64,000 bases of DNA from Candidatus Nomurabacteria bacterium (lineage in GTDB: Bacteria > Patescibacteriota > Minisyncoccia > Phycocordibacterales > UBA9973). Where the stretch lies: assembly GCA_023267435.1 (NCBI GenBank), contig JAHFNH010000001.1, forward strand, positions 80,253 through 144,252. The letters are read 5' to 3'. Within the stretch, counting starts at the first letter, position 1. Every line of letters starts with the position of its first letter. The translations under genes were made by a program, and so were the position numbers. The notes beneath the pieces are model-generated. The model was not told the origin of the DNA, ran no database searches, and saw only the letters and a list, made by a program, of their open reading frames with translations. Shown here piece by piece: positions 1-61,629 of this stretch.

Positions 1-2228
1 AAGACAAGAAAGAAGAAATAATAAAACTGGAAGAAGAACTTGAATATTTTTTTAATTTTATTCCAGATATGCTGTCTATCAGCTCGGCAGACGGATACTT
101 CAAAAAAGTAAACAAAGAATGGGAGCGAGTTTTAGGCTATACGGAAAAAGAATTGTTGGCGAAGCCATTCATAAATTTCATCCACCCAGATGATGTGCAA
201 CCAACACTTGATATTATCGCTAAACAAGCTGTTAAATCAAACGTCCTAAATTTTATAAATCGTTATCGTGCCAAAGATGGATCTTACAAATGGTTTGAAT
301 GGACATCGGCGCCCGCAAAACAAAATGGAACGATATATGCCGTGGCCCGTGATATCACTAGTCGCAAATTAATAGAAATAGAGATCGTTCAAAAGAATCG
401 CATGTTACGAATATTGAGTAACATAAATCAACTATTAATTCATGCTAAAGATGAATCTTCATTATTAACGGAAGCTTGTCGTATTATCAACGAAATTGCA
501 GAATATCGGATGTTGTGGATAGGTTTTAAAGAAAATGACAAGAAAAAATCAATCAAACCGGTCGCTGTTATCGGTTTCGAATCCGGCTTTATTGAGTCTA
601 TACATCCAACATGGGAAGATGATGAAAACGGACATATTCCGGCTGGTATAGCAATACGCACAGGAAAAATGTTCATCTCTCAAGATATTTCTTTAGAATC
701 CTTTCCGGGCCATTGGAAAAATATTGCTTTGGAACACGGATATAACTCCGTCATTTCTTTTCCATTAAAAAACGGCGATCAAACCTTTGGCAGCCTTACT
801 ATCTTTGGCGATAAGAAAAATCATTTTTCTGAAGATGAAATAAAAATTTTGGACGAATTAGCGAATGACTTGGCTTTCGGAATTATTTCTTTACGAACAA
901 TTTCTGAACGCAAAGCACTAGAAACTGAATTACTGAAAGCAAGTGCTGACAGATATAAAGCGCTTTTCCTATCTTCCCGTGATGCTATCATGACGCTTGA
1001 ACCGCCGTCTTGGAAATTCACTTCTGGCAATCCTGCAACTATTAAAATGTTTCAAGCAAAAAATGAAGGTGATTTTCTAAACCACGAACCTTGGATTTTG
1101 TCTCCAGAATTTCAGTTGGACGGAAGCCGTTCAGATGAAAAAGCAAAGGCTATGATAAACCACGCGATGGAAAAAGGAACAAATTTATTTGAATGGACAC
1201 ACAAAAGATTGAACGGCGAAGAATTTCCAGCGGAAGTTTTACTGTCAAAAGTTCAACAAAATGGGAATTCCTATCTTCATGCCGTTGTCAGAGATATAAC
1301 CGAACGTAAAAAAATGGAAGAAAAATTAAAAGAATATGCGGAAGAGAAATTCAAGGCTATTTTTGATAATACATTGGATGGAATTCTCATAGCAGATGTG
1401 AAGACGAAAAGCCTTTACCTCGCTAACCCTGCACTTTGCAAAATGGTCGGCTATTCTCTTGAAGAAATTCAAAAAATGAATATTGCAAATATTCACCCGA
1501 AGGAAAACTTACCATATGTCATGGATAAATTTGAAAAACAAGTACGAGAAGAAATTAAGATGGCAGAAAATATTCAAGTTAAAAAGAAGGATGGTGGTCT
1601 TATTTATTGCGATATTAGTGCATCCCCAATAACACTATATGGGAAGAAATACCTTTTGGGTATTTTTAGGGATATTTCTGAACGCAAAAAAATGGAAGAC
1701 AATCTTCTTAAAAGCGAAAAGCATTACAAAGAAGCTCAACGAATAGGGCGTGTGGGCAGCTGGGAGTGGAACATAGCAACCGATACCATCATTTGGTCTG
1801 AGGAGTATTACGAACTTGTCGGTTTTGATCCAAAAAAATCTCCGCCAAATTACGCAGAGCATTTAAAAGTTTACACTCTCGAGAGCCAAGCACGATTAGA
1901 TGCTGCCGTAAAACACCAAACTAAAACTGGCCAGCCATACGAAGTCGATTTAGAATTTGTTAACCCTAAAAGTCCAACTCGATGGATTACAGCCCGCAGT
2001 GAAACTGTGTATGACGATAAGGGAAAAATTATCGGATTACGCGGAACAGCGCAAGATATTTCTTTGCGCAAAAAGGAAGAAGAAGATTTAAGAAAAACAA
2101 AAGAAAAATTACAACAAGAAATCATTGAATTGGAGAGATTTCAATCACTCGCCGTGCATCGAGAGCTGAAGATGGTTGAATTGAAAAATAAAATTAAAGA
2201 GCTCGAAGAAAAACTATTCGTAAAATAA
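1..2228 (+). CDS. Multi-domain PAS/GAF sensor protein, 5'-partial. The reading frame is open to the window start and there is no kinase or other output domain.
   Basis: Four PAS/PAC-like blocks (e.g. RDITSRK, VVRDITERK, FRDISERK, AQDISLRK) and a GAF-like block, followed by a C-terminal coiled coil. The frame upstream of the first ATG at 69 has no stop codon back to position 3. Confidence 0.7.
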   Translation, partial: DKKEEIIKLEEELEYFFNFIPDMLSISSADGYFKKVNKEWERVLGYTEKELLAKPFINFIHPDDVQPTLDIIAKQAVKSNVLNFINRYRAKDGSYKWFEWTSAPAKQNGTIYAVARDITSRKLIEIEIVQKNRMLRILSNINQLLIHAKDESSLLTEACRIINEIAEYRMLWIGFKENDKKKSIKPVAVIGFESGFIESIHPTWEDDENGHIPAGIAIRTGKMFISQDISLESFPGHWKNIALEHGYNSVISFPLKNGDQTFGSLTIFGDKKNHFSEDEIKILDELANDLAFGIISLRTISERKALETELLKASADRYKALFLSSRDAIMTLEPPSWKFTSGNPATIKMFQAKNEGDFLNHEPWILSPEFQLDGSRSDEKAKAMINHAMEKGTNLFEWTHKRLNGEEFPAEVLLSKVQQNGNSYLHAVVRDITERKKMEEKLKEYAEEKFKAIFDNTLDGILIADVKTKSLYLANPALCKMVGYSLEEIQKMNIANIHPKENLPYVMDKFEKQVREEIKMAENIQVKKKDGGLIYCDISASPITLYGKKYLLGIFRDISERKKMEDNLLKSEKHYKEAQRIGRVGSWEWNIATDTIIWSEEYYELVGFDPKKSPPNYAEHLKVYTLESQARLDAAVKHQTKTGQPYEVDLEFVNPKSPTRWITARSETVYDDKGKIIGLRGTAQDISLRKKEEEDLRKTKEKLQQEIIELERFQSLAVHRELKMVELKNKIKELEEKLFVK

Positions 2229-2234
2229 ATTAAG

Positions 2235-2528
2235 TTATTTCACTGTCTTTTCTTCTCCCCAAATGCCATCTTTTTTATTGTAGATAAACACAATTCTTTT
2301 TTTAATATCAATTCCTATTGGCGCTGGTGCATCACCAGCCTTGAGCCAAACATTTTCATTGCTATCAGTAACTACTGTAACTTTGCCATCTTTAGAAAGA
2401 TTCTCGAAATCATAAATCAACGTCAAACTTTGCGAAGCAGGTTCCTTCCAACCGCTTTCAGTGAAGACAGTTTTCATTTCTTTTTTTGATTTTCTCTGCA
2501 AAATATCTACTAGTTCAAGTCCTGACAT
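2235..2528 (-). CDS. Hypothetical protein
   Basis: 97-aa ORF with no recognisable motif. Confidence 0.3.
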   Translation of the reverse strand: MSGLELVDILQRKSKKEMKTVFTESGWKEPASQSLTLIYDFENLSKDGKVTVVTDSNENVWLKAGDAPAPIGIDIKKRIVFIYNKKDGIWGEEKTVK

Positions 2529-2636
2529 AAAATTTATGTGTTATTAATTAATGCTGAAATTATATCATCAATCTGTGTCTATGTAAAAAATAAGTCTTTT
2601 GTGATATACTCTTTTTTACATAAGTTAAATTAATAT

Positions 2637-3053
2637 ATGAGATCTCTTTTATTTCATTGTAAAGATTTTGGTTCGGTAATAACTGGTCTTTCTACAAGAC
2701 CAGAGAATATTGTTCATGGAGATATTTTAGATGAAAAACAATCATCTCATGATTGCATTCTCGCTTTTGTCACAATTGAAAAAGGTGATACGATAGAAAA
2801 ATCATCAAAACTTACACAAGAAATACTTAAATTTTGTAAAGACACAAACCATAATAATGTTTTTCTTTGTCCTTTCGCTCATCTTTCAAATAATCTCGCT
2901 CCAGCAAAAGAAGCCATAATTGTTTTGGAAAAGATTGTTAGTGAATTAAAAAATTCTGATGTTCATCTGACTGAGGGACACTTTGGCTCAGACAAAGAGT
3001 TACTAATTCACCTCTTTGGTCATCCAGGTAATGCAAGATATCGAGAATTTTAA
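2637..3053 (+). CDS. Free-standing archaeal-type ThrRS editing domain-like protein (tRNA-Thr_ED / DTD-like fold)
   Basis: Blocks MRSLLFHCKDFG, ILAFVTIEKGD, NVFLCPFAHLSNNLA and GHPGNA resemble the archaeal ThrRS N-terminal editing domain as I recall it. At 138 aa the size also fits. Confidence 0.4.
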   Translation: MRSLLFHCKDFGSVITGLSTRPENIVHGDILDEKQSSHDCILAFVTIEKGDTIEKSSKLTQEILKFCKDTNHNNVFLCPFAHLSNNLAPAKEAIIVLEKIVSELKNSDVHLTEGHFGSDKELLIHLFGHPGNARYREF

Positions 3054-3666
3054 AAATTCTTATTCATCAAATTTTGATATAATTAAGCACATGACTTTTA
3101 CAAATTTAGCTATATTAATTTTTGCTTCAGCGTCATACTTAATAGGTTTTTGGGCAATTTTAAAAAAAGGGTATCGTCCAAATCTATTTACGCGTGTTGT
3201 TTTTCTTTGTTTGGCTTTAAATAATCTTGCCAGTGTTATTAAATTAGATAATCAATATTCTACCCTTGTACTCGCATGGGTTACATTTCTTGGTTCATTG
3301 TTAATATTTTTTGGATCAATTTTATTTAAAGGTGAACGCCTTTGGAGTAAAAACGAAACTGTTTCAACAGTTCTTTTAATAATCAGTTTCCTTTTTTGGA
3401 TTTTTACTGATATTCCTTTAATTAATCTCTCAATAGGGTTAATTACACATCTTTTAGGTTCTCTGCCGACAGTTGTTCGTGTGATCAAAAAACCAGAGAG
3501 TGAAAATATTCCATTTTGGCTACTCTTTGCAATCGCAAGTATTATTACATTACTTTCTACACATAGTGGAAATATAAAGGACTATTTGTTTGCAATTTAT
3601 TTCTGTATTTTTGATAGTGCAATGACTATTCTTGCATTTAGAAAATATTTAACTAAAAAAGCTTAG
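3016..3666 (+). CDS. Polytopic membrane protein. The true start may be an internal Met near 3091.
   Basis: About six hydrophobic segments. The 5' end overlaps the upstream ORF. Confidence 0.4.
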   Translation: MVIQVMQDIENFKNSYSSNFDIIKHMTFTNLAILIFASASYLIGFWAILKKGYRPNLFTRVVFLCLALNNLASVIKLDNQYSTLVLAWVTFLGSLLIFFGSILFKGERLWSKNETVSTVLLIISFLFWIFTDIPLINLSIGLITHLLGSLPTVVRVIKKPESENIPFWLLFAIASIITLLSTHSGNIKDYLFAIYFCIFDSAMTILAFRKYLTKKA

Positions 3667-3713
3667 TATTCAAAAAACTAATTCCAACTGTATTTTAAAT
3701 CAGCAGAAGATTT

Positions 3714-4511
3714 TTAAAATTTTAAAACTTCAAAAATATTTTTATCGTAATTCCATTGAACGGTAACATCATCTGATATATCCTTTTCATCGTTACTTAC
3801 CAGATTTACCATAAAAGAATCTTTATCTGTTGTTGAAATTTTATATCCATAAAAATTAGAAGTAACAGGAATTTCTGTGTCTTTGTTAATTTGATTAAAA
3901 AAACCTTTATCGTTTATTTCGTAAAATAAAATGTTTTTTCCGTCAATTTCCTTTACAACATAGATATTAGAAAATATATTTTTACCTATATCCACATAAG
4001 ATACATATATACTTCCAATAAGATCTTTCTCATCAAATAAATTATCTAACCAAACAGCTTCTCTCCCATCTATTATAATTTTAGGGTCTGGTTGCCAAAT
4101 AGACATAATAATCCTATCTTGTGCACATTTTATTAGTTCTGAATTTATTTCTTGTATAAATTTACCACCTTTCTTTATTCTCTTTTCCATTATAAATGGT
4201 CCATAGTTTGCTTGTATATAATTGTGATCCTCGATTACTTCCTGAAGCTTTTTTGCATCTAAATTATTAACAGAAATAGGTATTCCATTTACTTCATTTA
4301 TCTCAACTGCTTCCCACTCGCTTTCAGGAAATAATGATGAATTCACTTGTTCTAATAATCTTAAACATTCCGAAGGTTTGTTTGTGTAACCATCTTCTTT
4401 TACCCTAAGATGTTTATCTTGTAAGATAAAAACAAAAGTAATAATAAAAAGAATTAATACGAAAATCGAAGAAATTATCTTTCCAAGGTCTTTATTTGAA
4501 ATATTTTTCAT
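3714..4511 (-). CDS. N-terminally membrane-anchored hypothetical protein, candidate second immunity/accessory protein for the RHS toxin
   Basis: N-terminal TM (IISSIFVLILFIITFVFIL). Lies downstream and co-directional with the RHS gene. Confidence 0.4.
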   Translation of the reverse strand: MKNISNKDLGKIISSIFVLILFIITFVFILQDKHLRVKEDGYTNKPSECLRLLEQVNSSLFPESEWEAVEINEVNGIPISVNNLDAKKLQEVIEDHNYIQANYGPFIMEKRIKKGGKFIQEINSELIKCAQDRIIMSIWQPDPKIIIDGREAVWLDNLFDEKDLIGSIYVSYVDIGKNIFSNIYVVKEIDGKNILFYEINDKGFFNQINKDTEIPVTSNFYGYKISTTDKDSFMVNLVSNDEKDISDDVTVQWNYDKNIFEVLKF

Positions 4512-4971
4512 ATTCAGATTCTATGACTGTCATATCCACTTTTAGTGGATCTTTTTTTCCATCAAATAAAATCACTCCCCAATCATTCAAATTAATTTTT
4601 TCTCTATCTATTATAATTTTTTCTCCACTATCTTTTGTAAATTCTATATATCTTTTAATAGTAAAAATAGTTTTAATATTTTGTTTATTTAAAAAATTCC
4701 ATGCCAATTTCTGATAATACTGGGAATCAGCGACATATTCTTCGAGCCCTTTTCCATTTTCCTTGTTCATTTTATTAACCTCTGTTTCATTGGGTCCCAA
4801 AAACACTCCAACAATACCGTTTATCTGCAATGTATCATCTAAAGAACTTTGATTTTGAGTTTGATTATTTATAATATTGTTTTTTATATTTGTATTTAAT
4901 AAATAACCGAATAAGATTATTAATAAAATTGGTATAATTATTTTTATTATTTTTTTTGATTCAAGTTTCAT
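4492..4971 (-). CDS. N-terminally membrane-anchored hypothetical protein, candidate immunity protein
   Basis: Start MKLESKKIIKIIIPILLIILFGYLL lies 4 nt after the RHS stop (TAA-TAAT-ATG). Signal/TM anchor followed by a soluble domain. Confidence 0.45.
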   Translation of the reverse strand: MKLESKKIIKIIIPILLIILFGYLLNTNIKNNIINNQTQNQSSLDDTLQINGIVGVFLGPNETEVNKMNKENGKGLEEYVADSQYYQKLAWNFLNKQNIKTIFTIKRYIEFTKDSGEKIIIDREKINLNDWGVILFDGKKDPLKVDMTVIESEYEKYFK

Positions 4972-4975
4972 ATTA

Positions 4976-7900
4976 TTAATTTTGTAAAATATTAAATCTT
5001 CGTAAATATTCATTAGGATTATGTTGATAAAGGCCATTGTCTATATGAACACCATCTACTCTATTAAAATCACCACCCCATCGAAGTCCGGAGTCATTTC
5101 TAACATCTCCAACAAAACCTTGAACTGGGTTTGGTAAAGAATTAAAACCTGAATTTAAACACGAGCTACCACACATAATATCTTTGTTATTATTTTTATA
5201 TTGAATATTTACATCAACAGCAGTACCAACATAATGAGCTGAATTTTCAGTAACTTCACCTTGTTTATGGTAAACATCTCCTGGTATTGGATCTCCTTTA
5301 ATTCTAACTCCAGAACTTTCTATTTGTAATTTTACATCATTTTTACCAGCATATTGATTCAATCTATTGAGATCTTTAGTAAAATCCACAGGTACTTTAT
5401 TTGTTGAATTAAGAAAATTGTTTCCTTTATAATTCACTAATGTAGTGCCAGAATCAGAAGTTGAAGTTTTTTGCCCAGATAAAACAGTTTGAGTCGAACC
5501 CTTACTAAGGAAAGAGTTAATCGAATTCAAAAAAGATTTTATTGCTGAAAGAACTGCTATTTTTCCACTTGGATCTTTCATATTCACCGGATTGTCTCTA
5601 GCATAACTATAACTGTTTTGCTGTTGAGGATCAAGAAGAAGTTCCTGTGGCAATTGCCAAAACATCGAATCTTGACTGATGAATTGCCCAACACCAGCTT
5701 TATAATATCTGGCATTTAGATAATCCAATCCCGTATCGGTATCATAAACCTGCCCGATATATTGCCTCTGAGTATTATATGTTCCTGAAGAAATTCTTTG
5801 ACTGCCGAATGGGAAATAATCCAAAAGCTGAACGCTTGTGCCAGTGGTGTTTGAAACGACATTCGTCGAACCTAAATGATCCGTATGCACATAATACGGA
5901 GTCACCACACCACCGACTGTTTCAACAGTTGCGACAAGCTGATCACCAATATAAATACTTTTAGTTTTTTTAGTTCCGTCCGTATTGTAGAAATTATTTG
6001 GATAATAAGTATTTACACTTCCCTTTTGCATTCTCACGCGATTGCCGGCATTGTCGTATTGATAAACTAGTGTGATTGAATTTTGCACTGGCTGAGCAAT
6101 AGGAGATCTGGAATTCGACAAGTTCACATTCTTTGTCACTTGAACTAACTCATTTTTATAATTCCAAGTATTTATGATAGTTCCGTCAGTTAATAAATTT
6201 CCATTTTTATCATAGGTATTCGTCACGCTATTTATCGAGGTAGCAGCATGAGGGTTCGCATAATTTGTGCCGGTGTTACCCTGATAAAGGTAATTTCCAA
6301 CATCAGATTTATTTAAAATATTTCCAACTGCATTATAAGTGAAATTCTGAGTGTAAGGTGTCTGACCTGCCGGCACACCCGTGGCAAAAGCTACAACTAA
6401 ACGATTCAAGTCATCATAAGCATACACGACATTTTTCGTGGCACTAGTATTTGAAGTATCGATAATTTGAATAATATTATTATCCATATCATACGTGTAA
6501 ACAATATTCTGTAAACTTATTCCATTTCCATTTGTTGTAAACTTATTACTCAAACGATACATTTGTGATGCATTATAAGTATTTGTGGTAGTGGTACCAT
6601 TTGCATAATTAATCACTGCGACCTGATTCATTGGAGAATAATCAATATTAGAAATAACATTCGTGAACGAGCCAGCATTTTCTTTACGCTCGATTTGATT
6701 CAAAAGTCCGGCAGTGTTAAATGTATATCGCACTTGAGCATTATCCGGGTAAGTCATTATAGTTACATTTCCCTGCTCGTCGTATACATAAGAAGTTACA
6801 AAAATATTGCTATTTATCGTCTTGGTTTCGCTGGTAATATTTCCATTTGAGTCATAAGTATATGAAATATTGGCACCGGACGGCATCACAATTCCACAAA
6901 TTTTACTGATACCATTCGTGCAAGAATCATAGAAATAAGAAATTTCTGTGCCTGTCGCACCGGTATAATTTTCTGTCAGCATGCGGTTAAGAACATCAAA
7001 AGTATAATTTGTTGTTTTAGCTTCCGGACTAACAGATTGTGTCATATTCCCCGCATTATCATAAGCATATGTCCATATGCCGAAAGTCGTATCGCCAGGA
7101 GTGTGTAAATCTTCGGCTGTTAATCTGCGTCCAAGTCCATCATAAGTAAAGTTGCGAACATTACTCAATGCATCGGTAATATTTTTTACTTTGCCATTTA
7201 AATTCCAAGAATATGCCGTTGTGTAAGTCGAGCCTGAATTATGTTCATCTACTCGAATTAAATTTCCACGCGCGTCACTGTATGTATCTTTTATTTTTCC
7301 GCGCGGATCAGTCACGGATATTTTCCAGAGATTGTAAACATAACTTGTCGTTCCGACAGAATTTACTGAGTTCAACACACGACCCATTGGATCATATATA
7401 TATATTGTGTAGAGAGAAACATTTGTATTTGGAAAAGTTTTTACTAATCCAGTTCCAGTGTAAGGCAAAGATTGTTTTTGAATCATTCCGAGATTGTTAT
7501 AGACATAATCGCTCACGTTAAAATTGTTTGATGTTTCAGTTTCCTTTCTGTTTTGAATAATTCTTCCCAATCCATCGAAGTATTGATATGTGTCGACAGA
7601 ATTTGAGGCATTCAGATAATCTGTTTTATGAATAGAAACCGCACCGGCAATGTCTGTGTAAACATATGCTGTTTTTGTGACAAGAATTGAAGGTGTGATT
7701 AGGTCAGGAACTTTTTCCACAAGCACTCGGTCGAGTCCGTCATATTCTGTCTTGTAAACAAAACCATTTTGATCAGTTATTTGTTTTGGCTTACCGAGCG
7801 AATAATTATATAAATAATTCACAGAGTGGTTGAGCGCATCAGTGACAGTGGCGGGATATAAATGGTACGAATCATAAGAATAAGAAGTCACATGGCCATT

Positions 7901-10900
7901 CTCATCAGTCAACGAAACGACATTGCCATAAACTCCGTCATAAGATTTTTGCGTGTTTACAAAAGTTATGCCAGTCAGCCATTTTTCTATTTTGGTTTGA
8001 TTGCCCAGGCCGACAGAACCCAGCGCCAGTCTGTCGTAATAATTGCGAGTTTCATTCACTTTCGCCCCATTCTGGTCAAACACTGTATCATCATACGGCA
8101 AGCCAGTGACATTGTTGCCAGTGTTTGCAATATACAAAATATTTTCAATTGATTTATCAGAACCAATATCGGTAAATGAACCATCGGTATTTGCCGTCAC
8201 CTCTCCCCAACTAGTTTTTTGAATTAAATTTCCATAAACGTTGTCGTAAGAATATTCTTCAGCTGTGTCTCGGTGACTACTAGTGCCATCATAAGTCAGC
8301 GCAGTCGTGCTAGTAAGTTTTACAAATTTATTGCCATTGCCTAAATCATAATCATCCCATTTATTTACAACAACCGAATACAAGTTGGTAGAACTGTCAG
8401 TTTTCTCTATCCTGTATGGTTGTCCGATTTTCCATTCGTCATCATTATATTCTCCATGAGAAGAATCTGTGCCGATCCCAGTATGATAATACGTCGCAGT
8501 TGTATTTCCAGCCGGATCTGTTTCAATCACTTTATTAAAACCGGCAAATTTTCTGTCGGTACTGCCGTTGAAAAAATACGATCCTCCTTGATAACTATAT
8601 GTGGTCGTTCCAGTATTTCCGTTTCCATCATTAGTGGTGATTTGATATGTTGTTGGCAAATTAAGCGGTAGACTTGGATTCAAGAGGTTCCCATTTCCAT
8701 CTTTATAGTGATTGCTCATTTTATAAGTAACATTTGTTTGCCCGCCGGTTGGAAGCGTGATAGAGGCAAGCAAGTCTACCGGAAGGGTTGTTTTATTAAA
8801 AAACACATTATTAGTTATATGATTAGTAATACCATCAAAATAATTACCTTGATTTAGAATATCCGCCTGACCATCACCGTTTGCATCAAATAGCAGTCCG
8901 GGATTTAAATCAATATAGTCATTTATTCCCAAGTTAGCACCCGTATTCCAATTAATATCCCAAACCCAGCTATGTCCCTGGTTGATATACACCTTAAGAT
9001 TGGTACAACTTGCGCCACAAGCTCCACCAAGTTGATATGGGTAAAGAATATCAACCAAACCATCGCCATTGATATCTTGAAAAATTTCCCGATTAAAAAC
9101 ATTTCCATTTTGAGTACGAGTTAAAATAATAAAATCTGAAGGAAGAGTGTAACTGGAATCTAAAACCCAACCTGTACCTGTATTTAAATAAACTGACTGA
9201 AACATTCCAGAGGGTTGTGCGGGTGGCACTCCGTAAGTTGATTTGATTATGTCAGCCAAACCATCACCATTCACATCAGCAAACACTTGGTCATTCAAAA
9301 ATTCTGGACTTGCAAAAGTCTGACCTACAGAAGCATTATATGTGCTGAAGTTAGAGCCCGTATCCCATGCAATACTCGTCGTCACAGGTGATGGCCAGAC
9401 AGAAACATCTTTAATATAATCAGAAAAACCATCGCCGTTTAAGTCGGCAACAGCCTGCGGATAACTAAAAGGAGGATTCCAACTTGGGTTCGCAGTCCAG
9501 CCTGAACCATTATTAAGATATGAAGCTTGAGCTCCCCAAGATGAATAAGGGTCGTTACGAACCATATCGTTCAACCCGTCACCATTCACATCTATAACTT
9601 TCGTACTAGCATCTCCCCAACCGTTGTTGTCATGCCGAGCAATCCATATATCGGAAGGAACCGAACGAGAAGTGTCCAATTGCCAGTTGTCAGATGATGG
9701 ATGATATAAATATATTCCCTTTGCAGAATTATAATAATAATCAACATTATTCCATGCTTGAATTAAATCAGTGTAACCATCGCCGTTCACATCGGCTGGG
9801 ATGGTTCCATTATGCGTATCAATAGGGATATATGTTGAACTTTGATTTGAAGGAGTAAAGCCAGAAGTGCCTTGTGTATATGAAAAAGAAGTTGCAGGCA
9901 AAGTCGTCACAGTACCATTAGTGTCTTGACCGGACTCTATTATACTTGAGAGCAAAGAGCGATTGGTATTAGTGCCAGCTATATAATTGAAAACATATTT
10001 CGAAGTCCAAGTGCCATTAACTTTCACATCGATCTCATTGATTAAATAATTGGTGGTACTTGGGAATCCAGCCGCCGCCGACATCATCGCATCAGATCGT
10101 GAAGAACTTCTCAAAAAATCAATTTCAAAAATACCACTACTTGCGGAGTGATTGGAATACGTTATTGTTGCAGGATATATTTGACTGGAATTTTTGTAAT
10201 AAGTGTAAGATATGAAATTTCCATTCGTGTCTTGCACGCTCTCCAGCATCCATTTGTAAACATGAGAAAAATTATTCGGATCATCCTGCCTTGTATTTGT
10301 ATTCGTTCCAAAAGTATAAATCGTTCCTGTCTTATCTGTAACCGTCCACATATTGCTACTAAAACTATATTTCAAAAAATCTCCTTTTTCTATTTTAGAG
10401 GCATAAGTACCGCCAGAAACATTTACCAAGTCCCCTGACAAACTGGAAGAAAAATAATTATCTGTAAATAAAGTGTTGGTGCCTTTTTTATTCACTCTTT
10501 GAATGTAAGGAATATTCATTGACCAGCCATATCCGAAAACACTATCTTGAATTAAATTTTGACTGTTGTACTGAAGAGATAAATTCGGCTGCGTATTATT
10601 GCGACCAGGTGGAACGGCAATAGTATAACTGTAAACCAATGCCCCAGTCGAAGGATCTGTTTGGGCAATACTTTTTTTAACATTAGCATACTCGTTTGTT
10701 TGATTCATTGGGCTGACAGTGGGATTGGGACTTTTATTTTTTTCAACAGTAGGTGTTAGTGTGTCTTCACTGGAAATAGTTCCTCCACTTGGTGCATCTT
10801 TTTTTATTGCAGAAATATTGTCTGTCGCTGTCACTTTTGCATTTATATCTTTCGCTGATAAATCAGGTAGAGCAACATCAGTAGTGTTCGTATCTGAAAC

Positions 10901-11053
10901 ATTACTTGATGGCGCACTTTTAGTACCATCTGTTTTAACAGAAGCATCTTGCGCGAAAGTTATAGGCGTGAGAGAAATAAAAAAACCTAAAACAAGAAAG
11001 AAAACTACAGCTCTAACTAACACTAACGAACATAAAAATTTCTTTATATTCAT
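4976..11053 (-). CDS. Giant secreted SpvB/FG-GAP/RHS-repeat polymorphic toxin (Tc-toxin BC-like) with a C-terminal M15/LAS zinc-peptidase-like toxin domain
   Basis: N-terminal signal peptide and SpvB-like block PNLSLQYNSQ..GYGWSMNIPYIQR. Six DxNGDGxxD FG-GAP/VCBS motifs and many YD/RHS repeats (YTYDGLGRR, YAYDNAGNMT, YQYDNAGNRV). RHS core YYVHTDHLGSTN...YYKAGVGQFISQD and autoproteolysis-type motif NMKDPSGK. The tail has SAHYVGTAVD and LRWGGDF..DGVHID. Confidence 0.85.
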   Translation of the reverse strand: MNIKKFLCSLVLVRAVVFFLVLGFFISLTPITFAQDASVKTDGTKSAPSSNVSDTNTTDVALPDLSAKDINAKVTATDNISAIKKDAPSGGTISSEDTLTPTVEKNKSPNPTVSPMNQTNEYANVKKSIAQTDPSTGALVYSYTIAVPPGRNNTQPNLSLQYNSQNLIQDSVFGYGWSMNIPYIQRVNKKGTNTLFTDNYFSSSLSGDLVNVSGGTYASKIEKGDFLKYSFSSNMWTVTDKTGTIYTFGTNTNTRQDDPNNFSHVYKWMLESVQDTNGNFISYTYYKNSSQIYPATITYSNHSASSGIFEIDFLRSSSRSDAMMSAAAGFPSTTNYLINEIDVKVNGTWTSKYVFNYIAGTNTNRSLLSSIIESGQDTNGTVTTLPATSFSYTQGTSGFTPSNQSSTYIPIDTHNGTIPADVNGDGYTDLIQAWNNVDYYYNSAKGIYLYHPSSDNWQLDTSRSVPSDIWIARHDNNGWGDASTKVIDVNGDGLNDMVRNDPYSSWGAQASYLNNGSGWTANPSWNPPFSYPQAVADLNGDGFSDYIKDVSVWPSPVTTSIAWDTGSNFSTYNASVGQTFASPEFLNDQVFADVNGDGLADIIKSTYGVPPAQPSGMFQSVYLNTGTGWVLDSSYTLPSDFIILTRTQNGNVFNREIFQDINGDGLVDILYPYQLGGACGASCTNLKVYINQGHSWVWDINWNTGANLGINDYIDLNPGLLFDANGDGQADILNQGNYFDGITNHITNNVFFNKTTLPVDLLASITLPTGGQTNVTYKMSNHYKDGNGNLLNPSLPLNLPTTYQITTNDGNGNTGTTTYSYQGGSYFFNGSTDRKFAGFNKVIETDPAGNTTATYYHTGIGTDSSHGEYNDDEWKIGQPYRIEKTDSSTNLYSVVVNKWDDYDLGNGNKFVKLTSTTALTYDGTSSHRDTAEEYSYDNVYGNLIQKTSWGEVTANTDGSFTDIGSDKSIENILYIANTGNNVTGLPYDDTVFDQNGAKVNETRNYYDRLALGSVGLGNQTKIEKWLTGITFVNTQKSYDGVYGNVVSLTDENGHVTSYSYDSYHLYPATVTDALNHSVNYLYNYSLGKPKQITDQNGFVYKTEYDGLDRVLVEKVPDLITPSILVTKTAYVYTDIAGAVSIHKTDYLNASNSVDTYQYFDGLGRIIQNRKETETSNNFNVSDYVYNNLGMIQKQSLPYTGTGLVKTFPNTNVSLYTIYIYDPMGRVLNSVNSVGTTSYVYNLWKISVTDPRGKIKDTYSDARGNLIRVDEHNSGSTYTTAYSWNLNGKVKNITDALSNVRNFTYDGLGRRLTAEDLHTPGDTTFGIWTYAYDNAGNMTQSVSPEAKTTNYTFDVLNRMLTENYTGATGTEISYFYDSCTNGISKICGIVMPSGANISYTYDSNGNITSETKTINSNIFVTSYVYDEQGNVTIMTYPDNAQVRYTFNTAGLLNQIERKENAGSFTNVISNIDYSPMNQVAVINYANGTTTTNTYNASQMYRLSNKFTTNGNGISLQNIVYTYDMDNNIIQIIDTSNTSATKNVVYAYDDLNRLVVAFATGVPAGQTPYTQNFTYNAVGNILNKSDVGNYLYQGNTGTNYANPHAATSINSVTNTYDKNGNLLTDGTIINTWNYKNELVQVTKNVNLSNSRSPIAQPVQNSITLVYQYDNAGNRVRMQKGSVNTYYPNNFYNTDGTKKTKSIYIGDQLVATVETVGGVVTPYYVHTDHLGSTNVVSNTTGTSVQLLDYFPFGSQRISSGTYNTQRQYIGQVYDTDTGLDYLNARYYKAGVGQFISQDSMFWQLPQELLLDPQQQNSYSYARDNPVNMKDPSGKIAVLSAIKSFLNSINSFLSKGSTQTVLSGQKTSTSDSGTTLVNYKGNNFLNSTNKVPVDFTKDLNRLNQYAGKNDVKLQIESSGVRIKGDPIPGDVYHKQGEVTENSAHYVGTAVDVNIQYKNNNKDIMCGSSCLNSGFNSLPNPVQGFVGDVRNDSGLRWGGDFNRVDGVHIDNGLYQHNPNEYLRRFNILQN

Positions 11054-45822: not shown

Positions 45823-47022
45823 TTATATTATCTTTATAAATCTTCTCTTACCTATCTTGTACACTCCGGGAATCGCCATTATTTTAAAATCAGTAATTTT
45901 CTCTTCACTATGTTCAATTAATCTTTTAACTGCACCTTCATCAACAAGCCTGCGCCATTCACTCTTTGATGCTACGATTTTATTTTCAAATAAAACATCC
46001 ACCATTAATTCTCCTGTTTTATGTTTTACTTCTTCTATATCATCTGGAATTTCTTTTTTTTGAAAAGTATTAACGAAATTTTCTTGGGCTTCTTTTGCTT
46101 TTTTCTCTCCGTGATAAATTTTTACAATTTCTTCAGCTAGTTTCATTTTAAAATCTTTTGGATTTACACCATCTTGCATTTGTTTTTCAAAATCTTTTAT
46201 TTGTTCCAAGGAAACATCAGTACAGAGTTCAAAGCCTTTCAGAATTAAAGAATCGGTCCAGCTCATAACTTTACCAAACATTTCATTTGGCTTATCTTCA
46301 AAAGAAACCATATTGCCTTCTGTCTTGCCCATCTTTTTTCCAGAATTATCTTCTAGAAGTTTCATGGCTACGACAGATTTGTCTTTTTTTAATATTTCAG
46401 AAACTAACTCTCTTCCCATTAACATATTAAATGTTTGATCATTTCCACCCACCTCAACATCAACATTCATCGCGACACTGTCATAGCCTTGCATCAATGG
46501 ATACATAAACTCATGAATAAAGATTGGCTTGCCTTCTTGATTTCTACGGGCAAACATATCTCGTTTTAACATCTGATCGACTGTAACTCTTGAGGCAAGA
46601 TTTAAAACATCTTCAAAATTCATTTTCGCAAGCCATTTAGAATTAAATTTAAATTGCGCTTTATTTACACCAGTAAATTTTAAAAATTTTGAAGCTTGTT
46701 TTTTATATTTTTTTAAATTTCCCAGAACTTCTTTTTTTGTGAGCTGTTTTCGTGCTGCCATTTTATCAGTCGGGTCTCCAATCATTGCTGTAAAATCTCC
46801 CATCAATAAAATAACTTCATGACCTAAATCTTGAAATTGCTTTAATTTCATTAAGGGAATAGCGTGACCCATATGCAGAGTCGGACCAGTCGGATCTATT
46901 CCTAAATAAACTTTAAGCTTCTTACCTGAAAGAAGCTTTTGTTCCAAAGTCTCTTTGACGAAGATATTTTCAACTCCTCTCTCGAGTACGTTTTGAATTT
47001 TTTCATCCTTGCTTATTTTCAT
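45823..47022 (-). CDS. tyrS: Tyrosyl-tRNA synthetase
   Basis: HIGH-type LHMGHA, KMSKS-type KMGKT, C-terminal S4-like domain, about 400 aa. Confidence 0.8.
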   Translation of the reverse strand: MKISKDEKIQNVLERGVENIFVKETLEQKLLSGKKLKVYLGIDPTGPTLHMGHAIPLMKLKQFQDLGHEVILLMGDFTAMIGDPTDKMAARKQLTKKEVLGNLKKYKKQASKFLKFTGVNKAQFKFNSKWLAKMNFEDVLNLASRVTVDQMLKRDMFARRNQEGKPIFIHEFMYPLMQGYDSVAMNVDVEVGGNDQTFNMLMGRELVSEILKKDKSVVAMKLLEDNSGKKMGKTEGNMVSFEDKPNEMFGKVMSWTDSLILKGFELCTDVSLEQIKDFEKQMQDGVNPKDFKMKLAEEIVKIYHGEKKAKEAQENFVNTFQKKEIPDDIEEVKHKTGELMVDVLFENKIVASKSEWRRLVDEGAVKRLIEHSEEKITDFKIMAIPGVYKIGKRRFIKII

Positions 47023-47061
47023 ATAATGGATTATAACATGTTTTCTGCTATGATTAATATC

Positions 47062-49578
47062 ATGAAGAAAATATTAAAAAATAAGCATTTAATGAAGAAC
47101 TTGGCATTATTTTTCGCTGGGGGTTTCATTATTTTGACCGGTGCATTGATTATCTTTATTTCTACCATCAGAATCCCTGATTTTCATTCTTTTGAAGATA
47201 GAAAAGTTATAAATTCTACTAAAATATACGATCACACTGGAGAAATTCTTTTGTACGATATTCACCAAGATGTGAAAAGAACAAATATACCATTCGAACA
47301 AATGGGTTCCAATATAAAAAATGCTACTGTCGCGATTGAAGATTCTGAATTTTATACTCATGGTGGAATACGAGTTACTTCCATTATCCGAGCGCTTCTT
47401 TCAAAATTATTTCATGTTGGAATAGGAGGCGGAGGTTCGACAATAACCCAACAGTTGGTAAAAAATACTCTTCTAACACAAAAAGTTAGCTATATTCGAA
47501 AAATCAAAGAATGGGTTTTGGCGATCAAAATAGATCGATCTATGCCTAAAGAAAAAATATTGGAATATTATTTAAATGAAATTCCTTATGGTGGAAATAT
47601 TTATGGAATAGAAGCAGCTAGTAAAACTTATTTCAATAAAGACGCTCAAGATCTGACATTAGCAGAATCAGCGTATCTAGCTTCTATCCCCCAATCTCCA
47701 ACCACACTTTCTCCTTATGGAAAAAATAAAGACAAACTAGAGAATCGAAAAAATTTAGTATTGTCTAGAATGAAAGATCTTAAATTCATCACAGTAGATG
47801 AATACAATAAAGCAAAAAGTGAAGTTGTGACTTTTCAACCACAAGCAACTGGTGGTATTAAAGCTCCTCATTTCATATTTTTTATAAAAGATTATTTAGA
47901 AAATAAATACGGCGCAGATATGGTGGAACAAGGTGGCTTAAAAGTGACCACCACTCTAAATTATGACTTACAACAAAAAGCAGAACAAATCGTAAAAGAA
48001 GGAGCTCTTCAAAATGAAAAAGATTGGAATGGTAGCAATGCTGGATTGGTAGCGATCGACCCTAAAACAGGACAAATTTTAACCATGGTCGGCTCACGAG
48101 ATTATTTCGATAAAAATATCGATGGAAATTTTAATATCGCGACAGCCACCCGACAGCCAGGTTCCTCTTTCAAGCCTTTTATTTACGCTACAGCCTTCAA
48201 CAAAGGCTTTACACCTAACTCTGTGCTCTTTGACTTACCAACAGAGTTTCAAACTACCTGTGACGCTTATGGCAAAGCATTACCAGGACATAATCAAAAA
48301 GATTGTTACAAACCAGATGACTATGATGGAAAATTCCGTGGACCGATGACCTTGCGTGATGCACTTGGACAATCAATCAACATTCCGGCTGTAAAACTAT
48401 TTTATCTAGTGGGACTGAAAGACGCATTAAAAACTGCCGAAGATATGGGCATCAGTACTCTTGGTGACTCAAGTCGTTATGGACTGACTTTGGTTATCGG
48501 AGGCGGAGAAGTAGAACTCTTAGATATAACTTCTGCTTATGGAGTTTTTGCTAATGAAGGTATTCGAAACCCAGCGACAGGAATTTTAAAAGTTGAAGAT
48601 TCAACTGGAAAAATTTTAGAAGAATTTACCCCAAACCCTCGAGAGGTTTTGCCAAAAAATACTGCTTTAACTATTTCTGATGTCTTGTCTGACAACACTG
48701 CACGCACGCCGACTTTCGGAGCGCATTCTGTATTACAAATCCCTGGCAAAGATGTCGCAGTGAAAACAGGAACCACTAACAGCAACAAAGACGCGTGGAC
48801 TGTCGGCTACACACCATCAATCGCCGTCGGTGTCTGGGCTGGAAACAATGACAATAAGCCAATGAAAAAAGGAGGTTCCGCCGTCGCAGGGCCTATTTGG
48901 AATAAATTCTTAATCGAAGCTATGAAAATATTACCAGATGAAAAATTTGAAAAACCAAACTTAGAAACAGATCCTCATGTGGTGAAACCAGTAATTCGTG
49001 GATTCTGGCAAGGAAATGAAAATTTCTTTATTGATAAAATTTCTGGAAAATTGGCGACTGCTAATACTCCTAAGGAAACAAAAGTAGAAAAAGTAATAAC
49101 GAACGTGCATTCAATTCTTTACTGGGTGGATAAAAAAGATATCATGGGTCCACCTCCAACCGACCCAACTAATGATTCTCAATTTAGTCATTGGGAAATT
49201 CCAGTGCAAAATTGGTGGGCAAAAAATAGTGCTAATTATCCAAAGATAACTTTGGCTGATAAACCAACTGCCTTAGACGATGCGCATACTGACGCCAATA
49301 AACCTGTCGTGGCAATCACAATACCAGACACAACCACTACCTACCCTGCTAATCAAAAAATAACATTGGGACTTTCCAGTACTGGACATTTCCCATTGCA
49401 AAAAATAGATATCTTTATTAATGATGTTTATTTAGGAACTTCTAAAACACCAATTAATTTCTCTTTCACTCCATCCGAACTCGACAACCTAAAAGAAACA
49501 AATGAAATAAAAATTATCTCCTACGACACTGCGTATAACAGCAGTGAAACTACTTCTACTTTTAATGTAAGTCAATAA
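47062..49578 (+). CDS. Class A penicillin-binding protein (glycosyltransferase plus transpeptidase, PBP1A-like)
   Basis: GT51 motifs EDSEFYTHGGI and GGSTITQQL. TPase SxxK in ATRQPGSSFKP, and KTGT. The start is moved to MKKILKNK so that it does not overlap tyrS. Confidence 0.85.
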   Translation: MKKILKNKHLMKNLALFFAGGFIILTGALIIFISTIRIPDFHSFEDRKVINSTKIYDHTGEILLYDIHQDVKRTNIPFEQMGSNIKNATVAIEDSEFYTHGGIRVTSIIRALLSKLFHVGIGGGGSTITQQLVKNTLLTQKVSYIRKIKEWVLAIKIDRSMPKEKILEYYLNEIPYGGNIYGIEAASKTYFNKDAQDLTLAESAYLASIPQSPTTLSPYGKNKDKLENRKNLVLSRMKDLKFITVDEYNKAKSEVVTFQPQATGGIKAPHFIFFIKDYLENKYGADMVEQGGLKVTTTLNYDLQQKAEQIVKEGALQNEKDWNGSNAGLVAIDPKTGQILTMVGSRDYFDKNIDGNFNIATATRQPGSSFKPFIYATAFNKGFTPNSVLFDLPTEFQTTCDAYGKALPGHNQKDCYKPDDYDGKFRGPMTLRDALGQSINIPAVKLFYLVGLKDALKTAEDMGISTLGDSSRYGLTLVIGGGEVELLDITSAYGVFANEGIRNPATGILKVEDSTGKILEEFTPNPREVLPKNTALTISDVLSDNTARTPTFGAHSVLQIPGKDVAVKTGTTNSNKDAWTVGYTPSIAVGVWAGNNDNKPMKKGGSAVAGPIWNKFLIEAMKILPDEKFEKPNLETDPHVVKPVIRGFWQGNENFFIDKISGKLATANTPKETKVEKVITNVHSILYWVDKKDIMGPPPTDPTNDSQFSHWEIPVQNWWAKNSANYPKITLADKPTALDDAHTDANKPVVAITIPDTTTTYPANQKITLGLSSTGHFPLQKIDIFINDVYLGTSKTPINFSFTPSELDNLKETNEIKIISYDTAYNSSETTSTFNVSQ

Positions 49579-55600: not shown

Positions 55601-57448
55601 TTATTTATCTTGGGCGACACATTGATCGTATAAACTCTTTCTTAGAGGAGCTTCTTTTTGTGTAAATGCATCATTGCCATTACAGCTTCCGGATGTATAC
55701 ATTCTAAAAGTTCCTTCTATACTTCCGCATAGTTTATAGACTTTAGTCATATATTCTGATGCTACTAAAATATCTGTTGTATTATTATTTAATAAGTCTT
55801 TTGGAAAAATGGTGGTTGTGTTGGGTACAGTTGTAACTGTAATACCTTTATTATAATTAGCTCCTTTAGTTGAACCACTTGGGAAAAATGTAACACCAAA
55901 AAGTCCGACTGAATGAGAAAATCTCCAGTCTAAACCAAGATCATTCGCACTTGAGTTTAATTGATCGTTGTTTAGGAAAGAATGGTCCGTAATTTTTGGA
56001 TCAGTGCTATTTCCTGCTGGAAAACTTGTGCCATCGAATTTTTTACCTGACGCAATAAAATCTTTTCTAGATGGAACACCTGCAGATGGAACATTTTCAT
56101 CATGGCCAATGAGCCCTGTGACACCTCTAGATTCTCTTTGAATTGCCACTTGCAATAGACAGTGTGGAATATTGTATTCTTGTTTTACTGCGATAGTTTT
56201 TATTTGATCATAAAAGCTTGTTCTTTGGAAAGCTGTATCTGTTCCTTGTGTTTGAGAGAGGTTGTAATTATTTCCAGATGAATCAAATACCACTGACGCA
56301 TCATTTATCCCACTCAAACTCACATCTAGTAGTTGAGGATTAATAGTATTCAATAAAACATAAGAACCAAGTGCAATCAAAAGTCCAAAGATAGCATTAC
56401 CAATCCTTTTTCTACCTTCTTCTTTAGAAGTCATTAATTCACTAGTCACATACTCTATTCCACCTATTACTATCATTACAAAAGATAATACAGCACATAA
56501 TCCGATGAATATTCGAATCATTGTATTAAAATACTTACCAAAAACATTACCTTGAGTAGAATCAATGATTGTTATAGTATTTCCTCCTCCTGTTCCCTCA
56601 CCTGCCTTTGTTGGTAGTGGAGCAAGGAGTTGATATGTAGTGTCTGAATTGGGTGGAGGTAGAGTAACGGGTGTTATTTCAACTTGTACTTTTTTAGGGC
56701 TGAAGGTTTTAACAGTAGTGCTACAAACTTTATCAAAAGTATTTTCAGCACAGGCTGTATAGTAATACATTGTGCCTTCCACCATATTCTGCCCCTTATA
56801 TTTTTCTATAGAATTTTTGAAATCTATAGAAGCTTGGTTGTAATTTTCATCTCCATATAAACTATTTAGAGTCTTATGTGTTGTTTCAGCATCTAAATTA
56901 GCACTACTCAATCCATATTTAAACCACACAGTCACAGGATTCTTATTATTCTGCACCGTTCCTACCAACGTAGCACCTAAACCAGTTAGATTAATTATAT
57001 CTTTTGTATATACAGTCGGTGGTCTGCTTTCACTGATGACATGAGTTCCACCACCACTCGTATCAAAATCATCTTGAAACAATCGAACAACTTTATTATC
57101 GGGATACACACCTTCTATTCTATAAGTAAATAAATGCATGGATGCGGTGTATGGAAAAAGGTTTGTTGAATATGCAAAAGTAAGAGGCGCTGTACTTGCT
57201 GGGTCATATGATATATCAAGTTGTTTTGAAAATAATGCTGTTGTGTGATCTTTCTGATATATATATAGATAATAATAAACTGGTACTGGTTCTGTTAAAG
57301 AATCAATAACAACATGACCATTAACAGAGAAGGTTGTTCCCGTTATATCTGTTTTGTCGACTATTACATGCGCAGCCGCCTTAGCCTGAGATGCAATAAA
57401 AAAAGCAGAGATGATGAGCGTTAAGAATATGTATTTTAGGGTTTTCAT
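55601..57448 (-). CDS. Secreted single-TM cell-wall hydrolase paralog A, with a C-terminal lysozyme/SLT-like domain (T4SS-associated, VirB1/CwlT-like)
   Basis: Signal peptide and internal TM (IRIFIGLCAVLSFVMIVIGGI). C-terminal VAIQRES... and ..EYMTKVYKLCG..RMYTSGS resemble SLT blocks. The central 758 bp is identical to paralog B. Confidence 0.5.
   Translation of the reverse strand: MKTLKYIFLTLIISAFFIASQAKAAAHVIVDKTDITGTTFSVNGHVVIDSLTEPVPVYYYLYIYQKDHTTALFSKQLDISYDPASTAPLTFAYSTNLFPYTASMHLFTYRIEGVYPDNKVVRLFQDDFDTSGGGTHVISESRPPTVYTKDIINLTGLGATLVGTVQNNKNPVTVWFKYGLSSANLDAETTHKTLNSLYGDENYNQASIDFKNSIEKYKGQNMVEGTMYYYTACAENTFDKVCSTTVKTFSPKKVQVEITPVTLPPPNSDTTYQLLAPLPTKAGEGTGGGNTITIIDSTQGNVFGKYFNTMIRIFIGLCAVLSFVMIVIGGIEYVTSELMTSKEEGRKRIGNAIFGLLIALGSYVLLNTINPQLLDVSLSGINDASVVFDSSGNNYNLSQTQGTDTAFQRTSFYDQIKTIAVKQEYNIPHCLLQVAIQRESRGVTGLIGHDENVPSAGVPSRKDFIASGKKFDGTSFPAGNSTDPKITDHSFLNNDQLNSSANDLGLDWRFSHSVGLFGVTFFPSGSTKGANYNKGITVTTVPNTTTIFPKDLLNNNTTDILVASEYMTKVYKLCGSIEGTFRMYTSGSCNGNDAFTQKEAPLRKSLYDQCVAQDK
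56295..57052. repeat. 758-bp perfect direct repeat, copy 1
   Basis: Base-for-base identical to 59448..60205 on visual alignment. Coding in both copies. Confidence 0.8.
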
Positions 57449-57485
57449 CTTTCTTGCTATGTACTTTTTTAAAACACAAATAGAA

Positions 57486-58844: not shown

Positions 58845-58852
58845 ATTTTTTT

Positions 58853-60601: not shown

Positions 60602-60602
60602 A

Positions 60603-61589: not shown

Positions 61590-61629
61590 AAGGTTACTTA
61601 TATTGTAACATTTTATAATTTTTTTATCC

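Follow-up and report, generated by a model that had tools for sequence, protein, structure and literature searches.

A Candidatus Nomurabacteria RHS protein with a predicted LAS/M15 zinc peptidase cargo and a candidate cognate immunity gene

INTRODUCTION

Polymorphic toxins directed against the cell wall combine a conserved delivery shell, an exchangeable wall-active tip and a linked immunity gene (PMC3482391, PMC12419801). We describe a locus that follows the same logic in a 64,000-nucleotide stretch of DNA from Candidatus Nomurabacteria bacterium (assembly GCA_023267435.1, contig JAHFNH010000001.1, positions 80,253 to 144,252 of the forward strand), hereafter the window. The locus comprises an RHS gene and a downstream candidate immunity gene. 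The RHS product is likely a Sec-exported, TcB/TcC-like 'cocoon' toxin carrying a LAS/M15 zinc peptidase that would hydrolyse peptidoglycan stem peptides. An earlier note on this DNA had proposed a peptidoglycan-targeting RHS payload from a signature in the C-terminal tail, and the family, the fold, the fusion of relatives to peptidoglycan-binding domains and the tip position described below support that interpretation.

Among RHS proteins, Tox-LD-peptidase is a wall-directed tip according to the portion of Zhang et al. (2012, PMC3482391) considered here, which makes no mention of VanY or carboxypeptidase; unlike the window tail, Tox-LD-peptidase has an unrelated thiol beta-barrel fold. A VanY-like tip is mentioned by Burroughs and Aravind (2025, PMC12419801), but for a polymorphic toxin system of the Cystatin-domain kind and not for an RHS protein. 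Peptidoglycan-hydrolase effectors of type VI secretion systems (T6SS) are likewise wall-active antibacterial enzymes with immunity in the envelope compartment, and one of them, the predicted effector Tpe14 of Acinetobacter baumannii, has a Peptidase_M15_3 domain (PMC6833914). Although Tpe14 and the window tail share the LAS clan, the domain of the latter is M15_4; moreover, Tpe14 is not RHS-borne, and the window showed no T6SS genes.

The window protein shares its layout of SpvB, FG-GAP, RHS/YD shell, core and C-terminal cargo with the TcB-TcC cocoon of ABC (Tc) toxins and with the teneurin YD shell. It differs from Tc toxins in being one fused polypeptide with a signal peptide and in having a cargo that is antibacterial in type, whereas theirs is an insecticidal ADP-ribosyltransferase. 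The Sec-exported, wall-associated WapA-type RHS/YD toxins of the monoderm bacteria Bacillus subtilis and Streptococcus suis (PMC12704120) share with the window locus a signal-peptide RHS/YD protein, probably a monoderm lineage, a C-terminal toxin and a downstream gene for (in the window, putative) immunity. WapA proteins are not known to have an SpvB and FG-GAP module, and the WapA tips characterised so far are nucleases that need to enter the cytoplasm.

With respect to the cargo, the closest kind of described enzyme is the MEROPS M15C L-alanoyl-D-glutamate endopeptidase, represented by Ply500 (2vo9), LysB4 (6akv), the T5 and RB49 endolysins and Serratia ChiX (5opz). The window domain differs from the M15C phage lysins by an extra insert containing C1961 and C1965, and by being the cargo of an RHS protein with a candidate immunity gene rather than a phage lysin. 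VanY, VanX, VanXY and LdcB (M15B and M15D) are weaker matches than the endolysins and are housekeeping or resistance enzymes, not toxins. In literature searches Peptidase_M15_4 was found to be well known in endolysins, and these searches yielded no direct report of RHS-borne M15 toxins or of RHS toxins in the candidate phyla radiation (CPR)/Patescibacteria. Public annotation already tags these proteins with PF13539.

RESULTS

Architecture of the RHS carrier

The window contains a single RHS gene, which also encodes its only M15 domain. The gene and the parts of its product up to the end of the core are as follows.

4976-11053, minus strand: RHS polymorphic toxin gene, stop codon included, 2025 aa (open reading frame (ORF) list and translation)
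10952-11053, minus strand: N-terminal signal peptide or anchor, approximately residues 1-34, ...TFA/QD, cleavage site predicted from sequence
10406-10654, minus strand: SpvB/TcB-type N-terminal domain, best stretch residues 134-216 (Pfam PF03534, E = 2.5e-17)
8849-9796, minus strand: FG-GAP beta-propeller region, about residues 420-735, boundaries approximate (Pfam FG-GAP and FG-GAP_3)
5819-8776, minus strand: RHS/YD-repeat shell, about residues 760-1745, boundaries approximate (Pfam RHS_repeat and DUF6443)
5564-5818, minus strand: Rhs-associated core domain, residues 1746-1830, with the presumed autoproteolysis site NSYSYARDNPVNMKDPSG at its end

The Pfam content of the carrier was SpvB, FG-GAP, DUF6443, RHS_repeat and Peptidase_M15_4. 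Residues 10-28 form the single strongly hydrophobic segment of the protein (Kyte-Doolittle 2.73). The FG-GAP match had an E of 2.9e-9, and repeated xDxNGDGxxD motifs are readable in the translation of this region. RHS_repeat was matched in nine stretches of the shell (E = 5.9e-22), which also matched TIGR01643 YD_repeat and a precomputed TEN_YD-shell. As in TcB/TcC, the SpvB and FG-GAP module lies N-terminal to the RHS repeats, here within one polypeptide.

The Rhs core matched TIGR03696 of NCBIfam at 57.3 bits against a cutoff of 32.5, over profile positions 1-75 of 76. The core ends exactly in DPSG; the translation reads ...NSYSYARDNPVNMKDPSGK at residues 1814-1831 (...NPVNMKDPSGK) and continues for 194 residues. 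The earlier note's 194-aa tail after DPSGK was thus correctly delimited, residue 1831 being the end of DPSGK and 4979-5575 being the tail plus the DPSGK codons. The order of RHS/YD repeats, Rhs core with a DPxG end and C-terminal domain is that of Rhs-CT proteins. The conserved core motif suggests that the tail may be enclosed by the RHS shell and released at DPSG by autoproteolysis.

The tail belongs to a Peptidase_M15_4 branch

The tail consists of a linker and a domain that is the toxin proper. Residue conservation was counted in an alignment of 138 relatives.

5441-5560, minus strand: linker between the presumed cleavage motif and the peptidase domain, residues 1832-1871, with a short stretch resembling an amphipathic helix and then a stretch rich in Ser/Thr
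4979-5440, minus strand: predicted LAS/M15 zinc peptidase domain, residues 1872-2025 (HMMER homology extent, Pfam, AlphaFold2 and LAS-fold matches)
5303-5305, minus strand: R1917 codon, conserved Arg of the SS-x-R motif, Arg in 136/138
5234-5236, minus strand: H1940 codon, predicted zinc ligand 1 (S-x-H), 138/138, aligned with the SNH His of Ply500
5213-5215, minus strand: D1947 codon, predicted zinc ligand 2 (H-x6-D), 138/138, aligned with the AVD Asp of Ply500
5054-5056, minus strand: D2000 codon, predicted catalytic base (D-x-x-H), 136/138, aligned with the DYPH Asp of Ply500
5045-5047, minus strand: H2003 codon, predicted zinc ligand 3, 136/138, aligned with the DYPH His of Ply500

When the tail was searched against Pfam, Peptidase_M15_4 (PF13539) scored 33.2 bits (E = 8.2e-8, cutoff 25; 29.3 bits with the whole protein), its core covering residues 1935-2004, and no other family was significant. 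The tail had no match in NCBIfam or PADLOC. The tail was also used in an exhaustive HMMER search of 1.84 billion cluster representatives, which gave 301 relatives at E <= 1e-3, of which 105 reached E <= 1e-10. The homology spans about 155 residues (query approximately 40-198), roughly double the 70-position Pfam core. A word-indexed protein search returned only three sequences, two related to the tail and one to the candidate immunity protein described below. Both motifs in the earlier note's M15/LAS signature are present, SAHYVGTAVD encoded at 5213-5242 and LRWGGDF...DGVHID (LRWGGDFNRVDGVHID) at 5039-5086, both on the minus strand, and the Pfam score together with the HMMER relatives indicates that the signature did not arise by chance.

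The residues listed above include the predicted zinc-ligand triad, with H-x(3-6)-D followed by a distal His with an acidic residue three positions before it. The earlier note had made conservation of the His and Asp positions in homologues part of its test, and the predicted ligands are invariant or nearly so. The catalytic role of D2000 we take from what is known of M15C enzymes. S1938 (134/138), W1992 (137/138) and D2005 (135/138) were also conserved. The Cys pair C1961/C1965 is invariant in the subclade of the window toxin and in P0003, and both residues occur in about 37% of the family; a disulfide between them would fit an exported enzyme. P0003 (2188 aa, from a Patescibacteria metagenome-assembled genome (MAG)) is another SpvB/FG-GAP/RHS protein with M15_4, and its linker, like that of P0001, resembles the window linker.

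All 69 full-length relatives that were scanned had an M15_4 match. PG_binding_1 was present in 17 of them, others had PG_binding_3, LysM, SH3_3 or GH108 lysozyme, nine had the eCIS_core cargo domain, two had Tlde1, and one was the RHS protein P0003. These fusions to peptidoglycan-binding or to extracellular contractile injection system (eCIS) and RHS domains indicate that the module serves both together with wall-binding domains and as delivery cargo.

Two distant occurrences of the family were also seen. On a contig labelled Candidatus Woesearchaeota archaeon (DPANN; L008), ORF 2-4480 ends in the same toxin family; this ORF begins at the start of the locus, so its 1493 codons are possibly incomplete, and the occurrence could be a real transfer or a binning error. 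In four cyanobacterial loci, from Nostoc and relatives (L019, L025, L051, L068), a conserved gene of 263 aa comes after the distant M15 relative. By eye, its product resembles an N-acetylmuramoyl-L-alanine amidase, which would suggest paired wall-hydrolase cassettes.

Predicted fold and solved relatives

An AlphaFold2 model of the tail built on 67 sequences had a mean predicted local distance difference test (pLDDT) score of 93.2 and a predicted TM-score (pTM) of 0.88. When this model was searched against the PDB with Foldseek, ranks 1-16 were all LAS-fold proteins, nearly all of them M15 wall peptidases; the matches included Ply500, ChiX, LysECD7, VanX, LysB4, VanY, Hedgehog-N, T5 endolysin and LdcB. 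Bacillus phage L-alanoyl-D-glutamate peptidases and endolysins headed the matches in a viral structure library. The 67-sequence family profile also reached Ply500 by sequence (E = 0.0036), with SNH/SNH, AID/AVD and D-p-V-H/D-Y-P-H aligned. From this model and these searches we conclude that the predicted LAS fold is secure; the better alignment to a non-peptidase fold that the earlier note had allowed for did not appear. A single-sequence phmmer search of the tail against the PDB gave only a weak match to Sonic hedgehog (E = 0.25) and chance matches to TRPM7; the LAS link came from the profile and structure searches.

The Hedgehog N-terminal domain keeps the fold and the zinc site and is no wall hydrolase, and a LAS fold in the tail might similarly act on a target other than peptidoglycan or serve as a non-catalytic binding module. 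We consider this very improbable. The tail retains all three metal ligands as well as the catalytic Asp and the conserved Arg, bacterial wall enzymes outscored Hedgehog in every search, and relatives of the tail have been fused repeatedly to peptidoglycan-binding domains.

A more serious alternative retains the wall as target and changes the chemistry, in which case the tail would act as a D,D- or L,D-carboxypeptidase of the VanY/LdcB type or as a dipeptidase of the VanX type. A carboxypeptidase would trim the terminal D-Ala from stem peptides or lipid II and leave transpeptidases short of donor pentapeptides, with no internal cut. VanY, VanX and LdcB scored only slightly below the endopeptidases. 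However, the nearest matches by both sequence profile and structure are the L-Ala-D-Glu endopeptidases Ply500, LysB4, ChiX and the Bacillus phage lysins, and the tail has no VanY match in Pfam. Moreover, the tail motif is D-x-x-H as in Ply500 (DYPH), whereas VanX, VanY and LdcB have E-x-x-H. We therefore regard carboxypeptidase or dipeptidase activity as the less probable chemistry.

Related shells carry exchangeable tips

The search with the shell found more than 546 relatives (E <= 1e-20). Where an organism is named, it is in most cases a member of the Patescibacteria, Paceibacterota, Doudnabacteria, Falkowbacteria or Parcubacteria; a few belong to the Bacteroidales and Acidobacteria. The terminal motif N-x-Y-x-Y-...-NP-x4-DP-x-G (NSYSYARDNPVNMKDPSG in the window) was present in 94 of 120 listed proteins, the window's own included, and 93 of these 94 have a tail of at least 60 aa, mostly about 145-235 aa. 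The 93 tails fell into 36 sequence clusters, and unrelated tips occur on close shell homologues. For eight sampled tips Pfam gave a name: M15_4/VanY, CHAP, SLT, HNH (two), Tox-GHH, Ntox21 and Ntox44. The sibling M15_4/VanY tip belongs to a different, classic M15C-like subfamily. A core ending in DPxG with varied tails on sibling shells is what polymorphic toxin families typically show.

The shell has a GC content of 0.375 and the tail one of 0.306; the two genes that follow have 0.237 and 0.264, respectively, and the whole window has 0.349. Drops of this kind are typical of tip/immunity cassettes that have been exchanged, and the position of this one at the core/tip junction suggests separate acquisition of the tip and immunity cassette.

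A hydrophobic segment of transmembrane grade is absent from the window tail (maximum Kyte-Doolittle 1.23) and present in 40 of the 93 sibling tails. The two HNH tails and the Ntox21 tail start with a long hydrophobic, glycine-rich stretch. As a separate observation, 34 of the 93 sibling tails form one similarity cluster (including P0164, P0167, P0188, P0230 and P0260), several members of which have a Gly/Ala-rich hydrophobic segment right after DPxG, e.g. ...PYVPAIAGAYPLAIVMSGG.... This segment may be a membrane-translocation element for tips that act in the cytoplasm.

A candidate immunity gene is linked to the toxin subclade

Two small genes follow the RHS gene on the same strand.

4492-4971, minus strand: candidate cognate immunity gene, stop codon included (4495-4971 without stop), 159 aa, membrane anchor and a soluble domain of about 130 aa
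3714-4511, minus strand: second downstream membrane-anchored gene, 265 aa, 20-nt overlap with the immunity gene, single N-terminal hydrophobic helix

The ATG of the candidate immunity gene is at 4971, 4 nt past the RHS stop, and the protein opens MKLESKKIIKIIIPILLIILFGYLL.... The mechanical ORF (4492-5037, minus strand) overlaps the 3' end of the RHS gene, and the public call is a 181-aa protein with a start inside the RHS gene. The homologue P0153 starts at the Met equivalent to ATG 4971. From this start and the position of the RHS stop, we conclude that the protein consists of 159 aa from 4971 and that the public call is over-extended. The protein has one N-terminal hydrophobic helix preceded by lysines, an arrangement in which the soluble domain probably faces the outside of the membrane. 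It matched no family in Pfam, NCBIfam or PADLOC, and the second downstream gene had no match in NCBIfam or PADLOC. Pfam matches of the two downstream genes to Nfu_N and Fimbrial_CS1 were below cutoff and were treated as noise.

The subclade of the window toxin also occurs as orphan Rhs C-terminal fragments, i.e. a core remnant plus toxin (L001 4929-5924, L083 591-1255). In L001, L002 and L163-166 the toxin of the orphan fragment is 59-67% identical to the window toxin, and a 155-aa homologue of the immunity candidate (71% identical) starts 2 nt past the stop of the fragment. In L083 a 184-aa homologue (35-589, 53% identical) lies directly upstream of the orphan Rhs-CT of the same subclade; this homologue has an additional C-terminal hydrophobic helix. 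Downstream of a stand-alone 185-aa toxin ORF of the subclade (P0002, L167 147-704), at a distance of 1 nt, lies a different membrane-anchored gene. Homologues of the immunity candidate were found only beside the toxin subclade of the window, so that the downstream gene co-varies with the tip as in Rhs-CT systems. The immunity protein of a wall toxin would be expected to be tightly coupled to it, to co-occur with a single toxin subclade and to be located in the envelope; the 159-aa protein, which fits all three expectations, may thus protect the producer and its kin.

The C-terminal half of the 265-aa protein resembles a 144-aa gene (L001 4416-4850) just upstream of the orphan toxin of L001/L002/L163 (E = 2e-6). 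This similarity indicates that the two loci share two small envelope genes in different order. The 3714-4511 gene may be an orphan immunity or accessory gene.

Some M15 peptidases are accessory wall-remodelling enzymes in secretion clusters (PMC11872809), and a wall-opening role has been proposed for TagX/TagY in T6SS clusters. By analogy, the tail might open the producer's own peptidoglycan for passage of the RHS protein or another surface structure, and many of the PG_binding_1 relatives could be housekeeping hydrolases. Against such self-directed remodelling, the domain lies right after the Rhs core, the place of exchangeable toxins, where sibling shells have nucleases and other toxins; in addition, there is the GC drop at the tip, the co-conserved downstream partner gene and the orphan Rhs-CT copies. 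Taken together, these features leave self-remodelling only a slight chance of being correct.

The target cell is a separate question. A toxin used mainly against the host bacterium of an episymbiotic Patescibacterium, opening its wall for attachment or feeding, rather than against competing relatives, would be consistent with the mostly patescibacterial affiliation of the closest named shell relatives and with the source of the closest toxin relatives, L083 and L167, both from Hainich groundwater (0.1 um filtrates). A hydrolase that attacks the wall from outside does not have to be imported, and CHAP and SLT tips also occur in this RHS clade. However, kin-directed polymorphic toxins are marked by a cognate immunity gene and by orphan toxin/immunity cassettes (Zhang et al. 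2012, PMC3482391), and host attack as the main function is accordingly unlikely in our estimation.

DISCUSSION

The architecture of the carrier, the family and fold of the tail, the conservation of its residues, the polymorphism of the tips and the linkage to a partner gene support a cocoon RHS toxin with a wall peptidase cargo. From knowledge of Tc toxins and RHS effectors, the protein would be exported by Sec with the RHS shell enclosing the tail of roughly 21 kDa. The tail would be freed by aspartyl autoproteolysis at the DPSG core motif and released at the wall of a neighbouring cell. LAS enzymology predicts that H1940, D1947 and H2003 hold Zn, that D2000 acts as general base and that R1917 stabilises the intermediate. 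Cleavage of stem peptides, most likely at the L-Ala-D-iGlu bond as in the closest solved relatives, would then weaken the sacculus. The producer itself makes peptidoglycan, as indicated by a class A penicillin-binding protein (46939-49578), and would therefore need immunity. The producer and its kin would be shielded by the 159-aa protein, the soluble domain of which would lie outside the membrane, where the toxin would act.

Several observations count against this interpretation or limit its detail. The solved LAS enzymes are distant from the tail (TM-score 0.4-0.5, identity 14-21%), which means that bond specificity cannot be transferred from them. At several highly conserved non-ligand positions the subclade has residues other than those of the family consensus (N1939A, H1944T, V1928Y, P1930K and D2006N), and the substrate may therefore differ. 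The five wall-enzyme tips (the window tail, two M15C, CHAP and SLT) all lack a hydrophobic segment, as would fit a toxin that need not cross a membrane, but this is weak support, as 53 of the 93 tails lack one and five out of five is expected by chance about 6% of the time. Unlike in Tc toxin systems, no TcA-like or other delivery partner was found within the 64-kb window, which has no other ORF of more than 900 aa; the scanned neighbours of the RHS gene are unrelated housekeeping genes. With respect to the partner gene, the immunity family was absent beside 80 distant toxin relatives, with nothing beyond L001/L002, and it was seen in three lineages; the genes downstream of the distant toxin relatives are heterogeneous. 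An AlphaFold2 model of the immunity protein, built from two sequences, had a pLDDT of 52 and was left out of the fold search.

Other features of the window lie apart from this locus. A run of minus-strand genes at 55601-63471 looks like a type IV secretion or conjugation-like module that has a wall hydrolase of its own: it includes a TraG/VirB4-like P-loop ATPase (61630-63471), an NlpC/P60 protein of 582 aa (58853-60601) and three large ORFs without a Pfam match. On the plus strand, a 719-aa multi-PAS/GAF sensor protein (69-2228) adjoins a small protein (2637-3053) that is publicly tagged as a tRNA-Thr editing domain (PF08915); this pair is unrelated to the toxin.

We conclude that the locus encodes a predicted toxin/immunity pair that is well supported and fairly ordinary. 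Current understanding is not overturned, as wall-active effectors with envelope immunity, exchange of RHS tips and LAS peptidases are all established. The toxin domain belongs to a sizeable, mostly unstudied M15_4 branch (301 cluster representatives) that is common to eCIS cargo, RHS cargo and enzymes with peptidoglycan-binding domains and that might be a source of new lytic enzymes.

Patescibacteria MAGs contain many RHS shells of this type. It is conceivable, though we think it improbable, that the ultra-small, host-dependent Patescibacteria use Sec-exported RHS cocoons with wall hydrolases (M15, CHAP, SLT, M15C) to breach the peptidoglycan of their hosts. If so, such proteins would be contact-dependent 'can-openers' for episymbiotic feeding, with a membrane-anchored immunity protein shielding the thin wall of the symbiont. 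They would also represent a delivery route without injection machinery and a molecular handle on CPR parasitism of hosts. As a putative toxin/immunity pair, the locus is testable in a lineage with almost no experimental knowledge of cell-cell antagonism; wall-hydrolase tips act outside the membrane, and the pair can therefore be tested in ordinary hosts by periplasmic expression.

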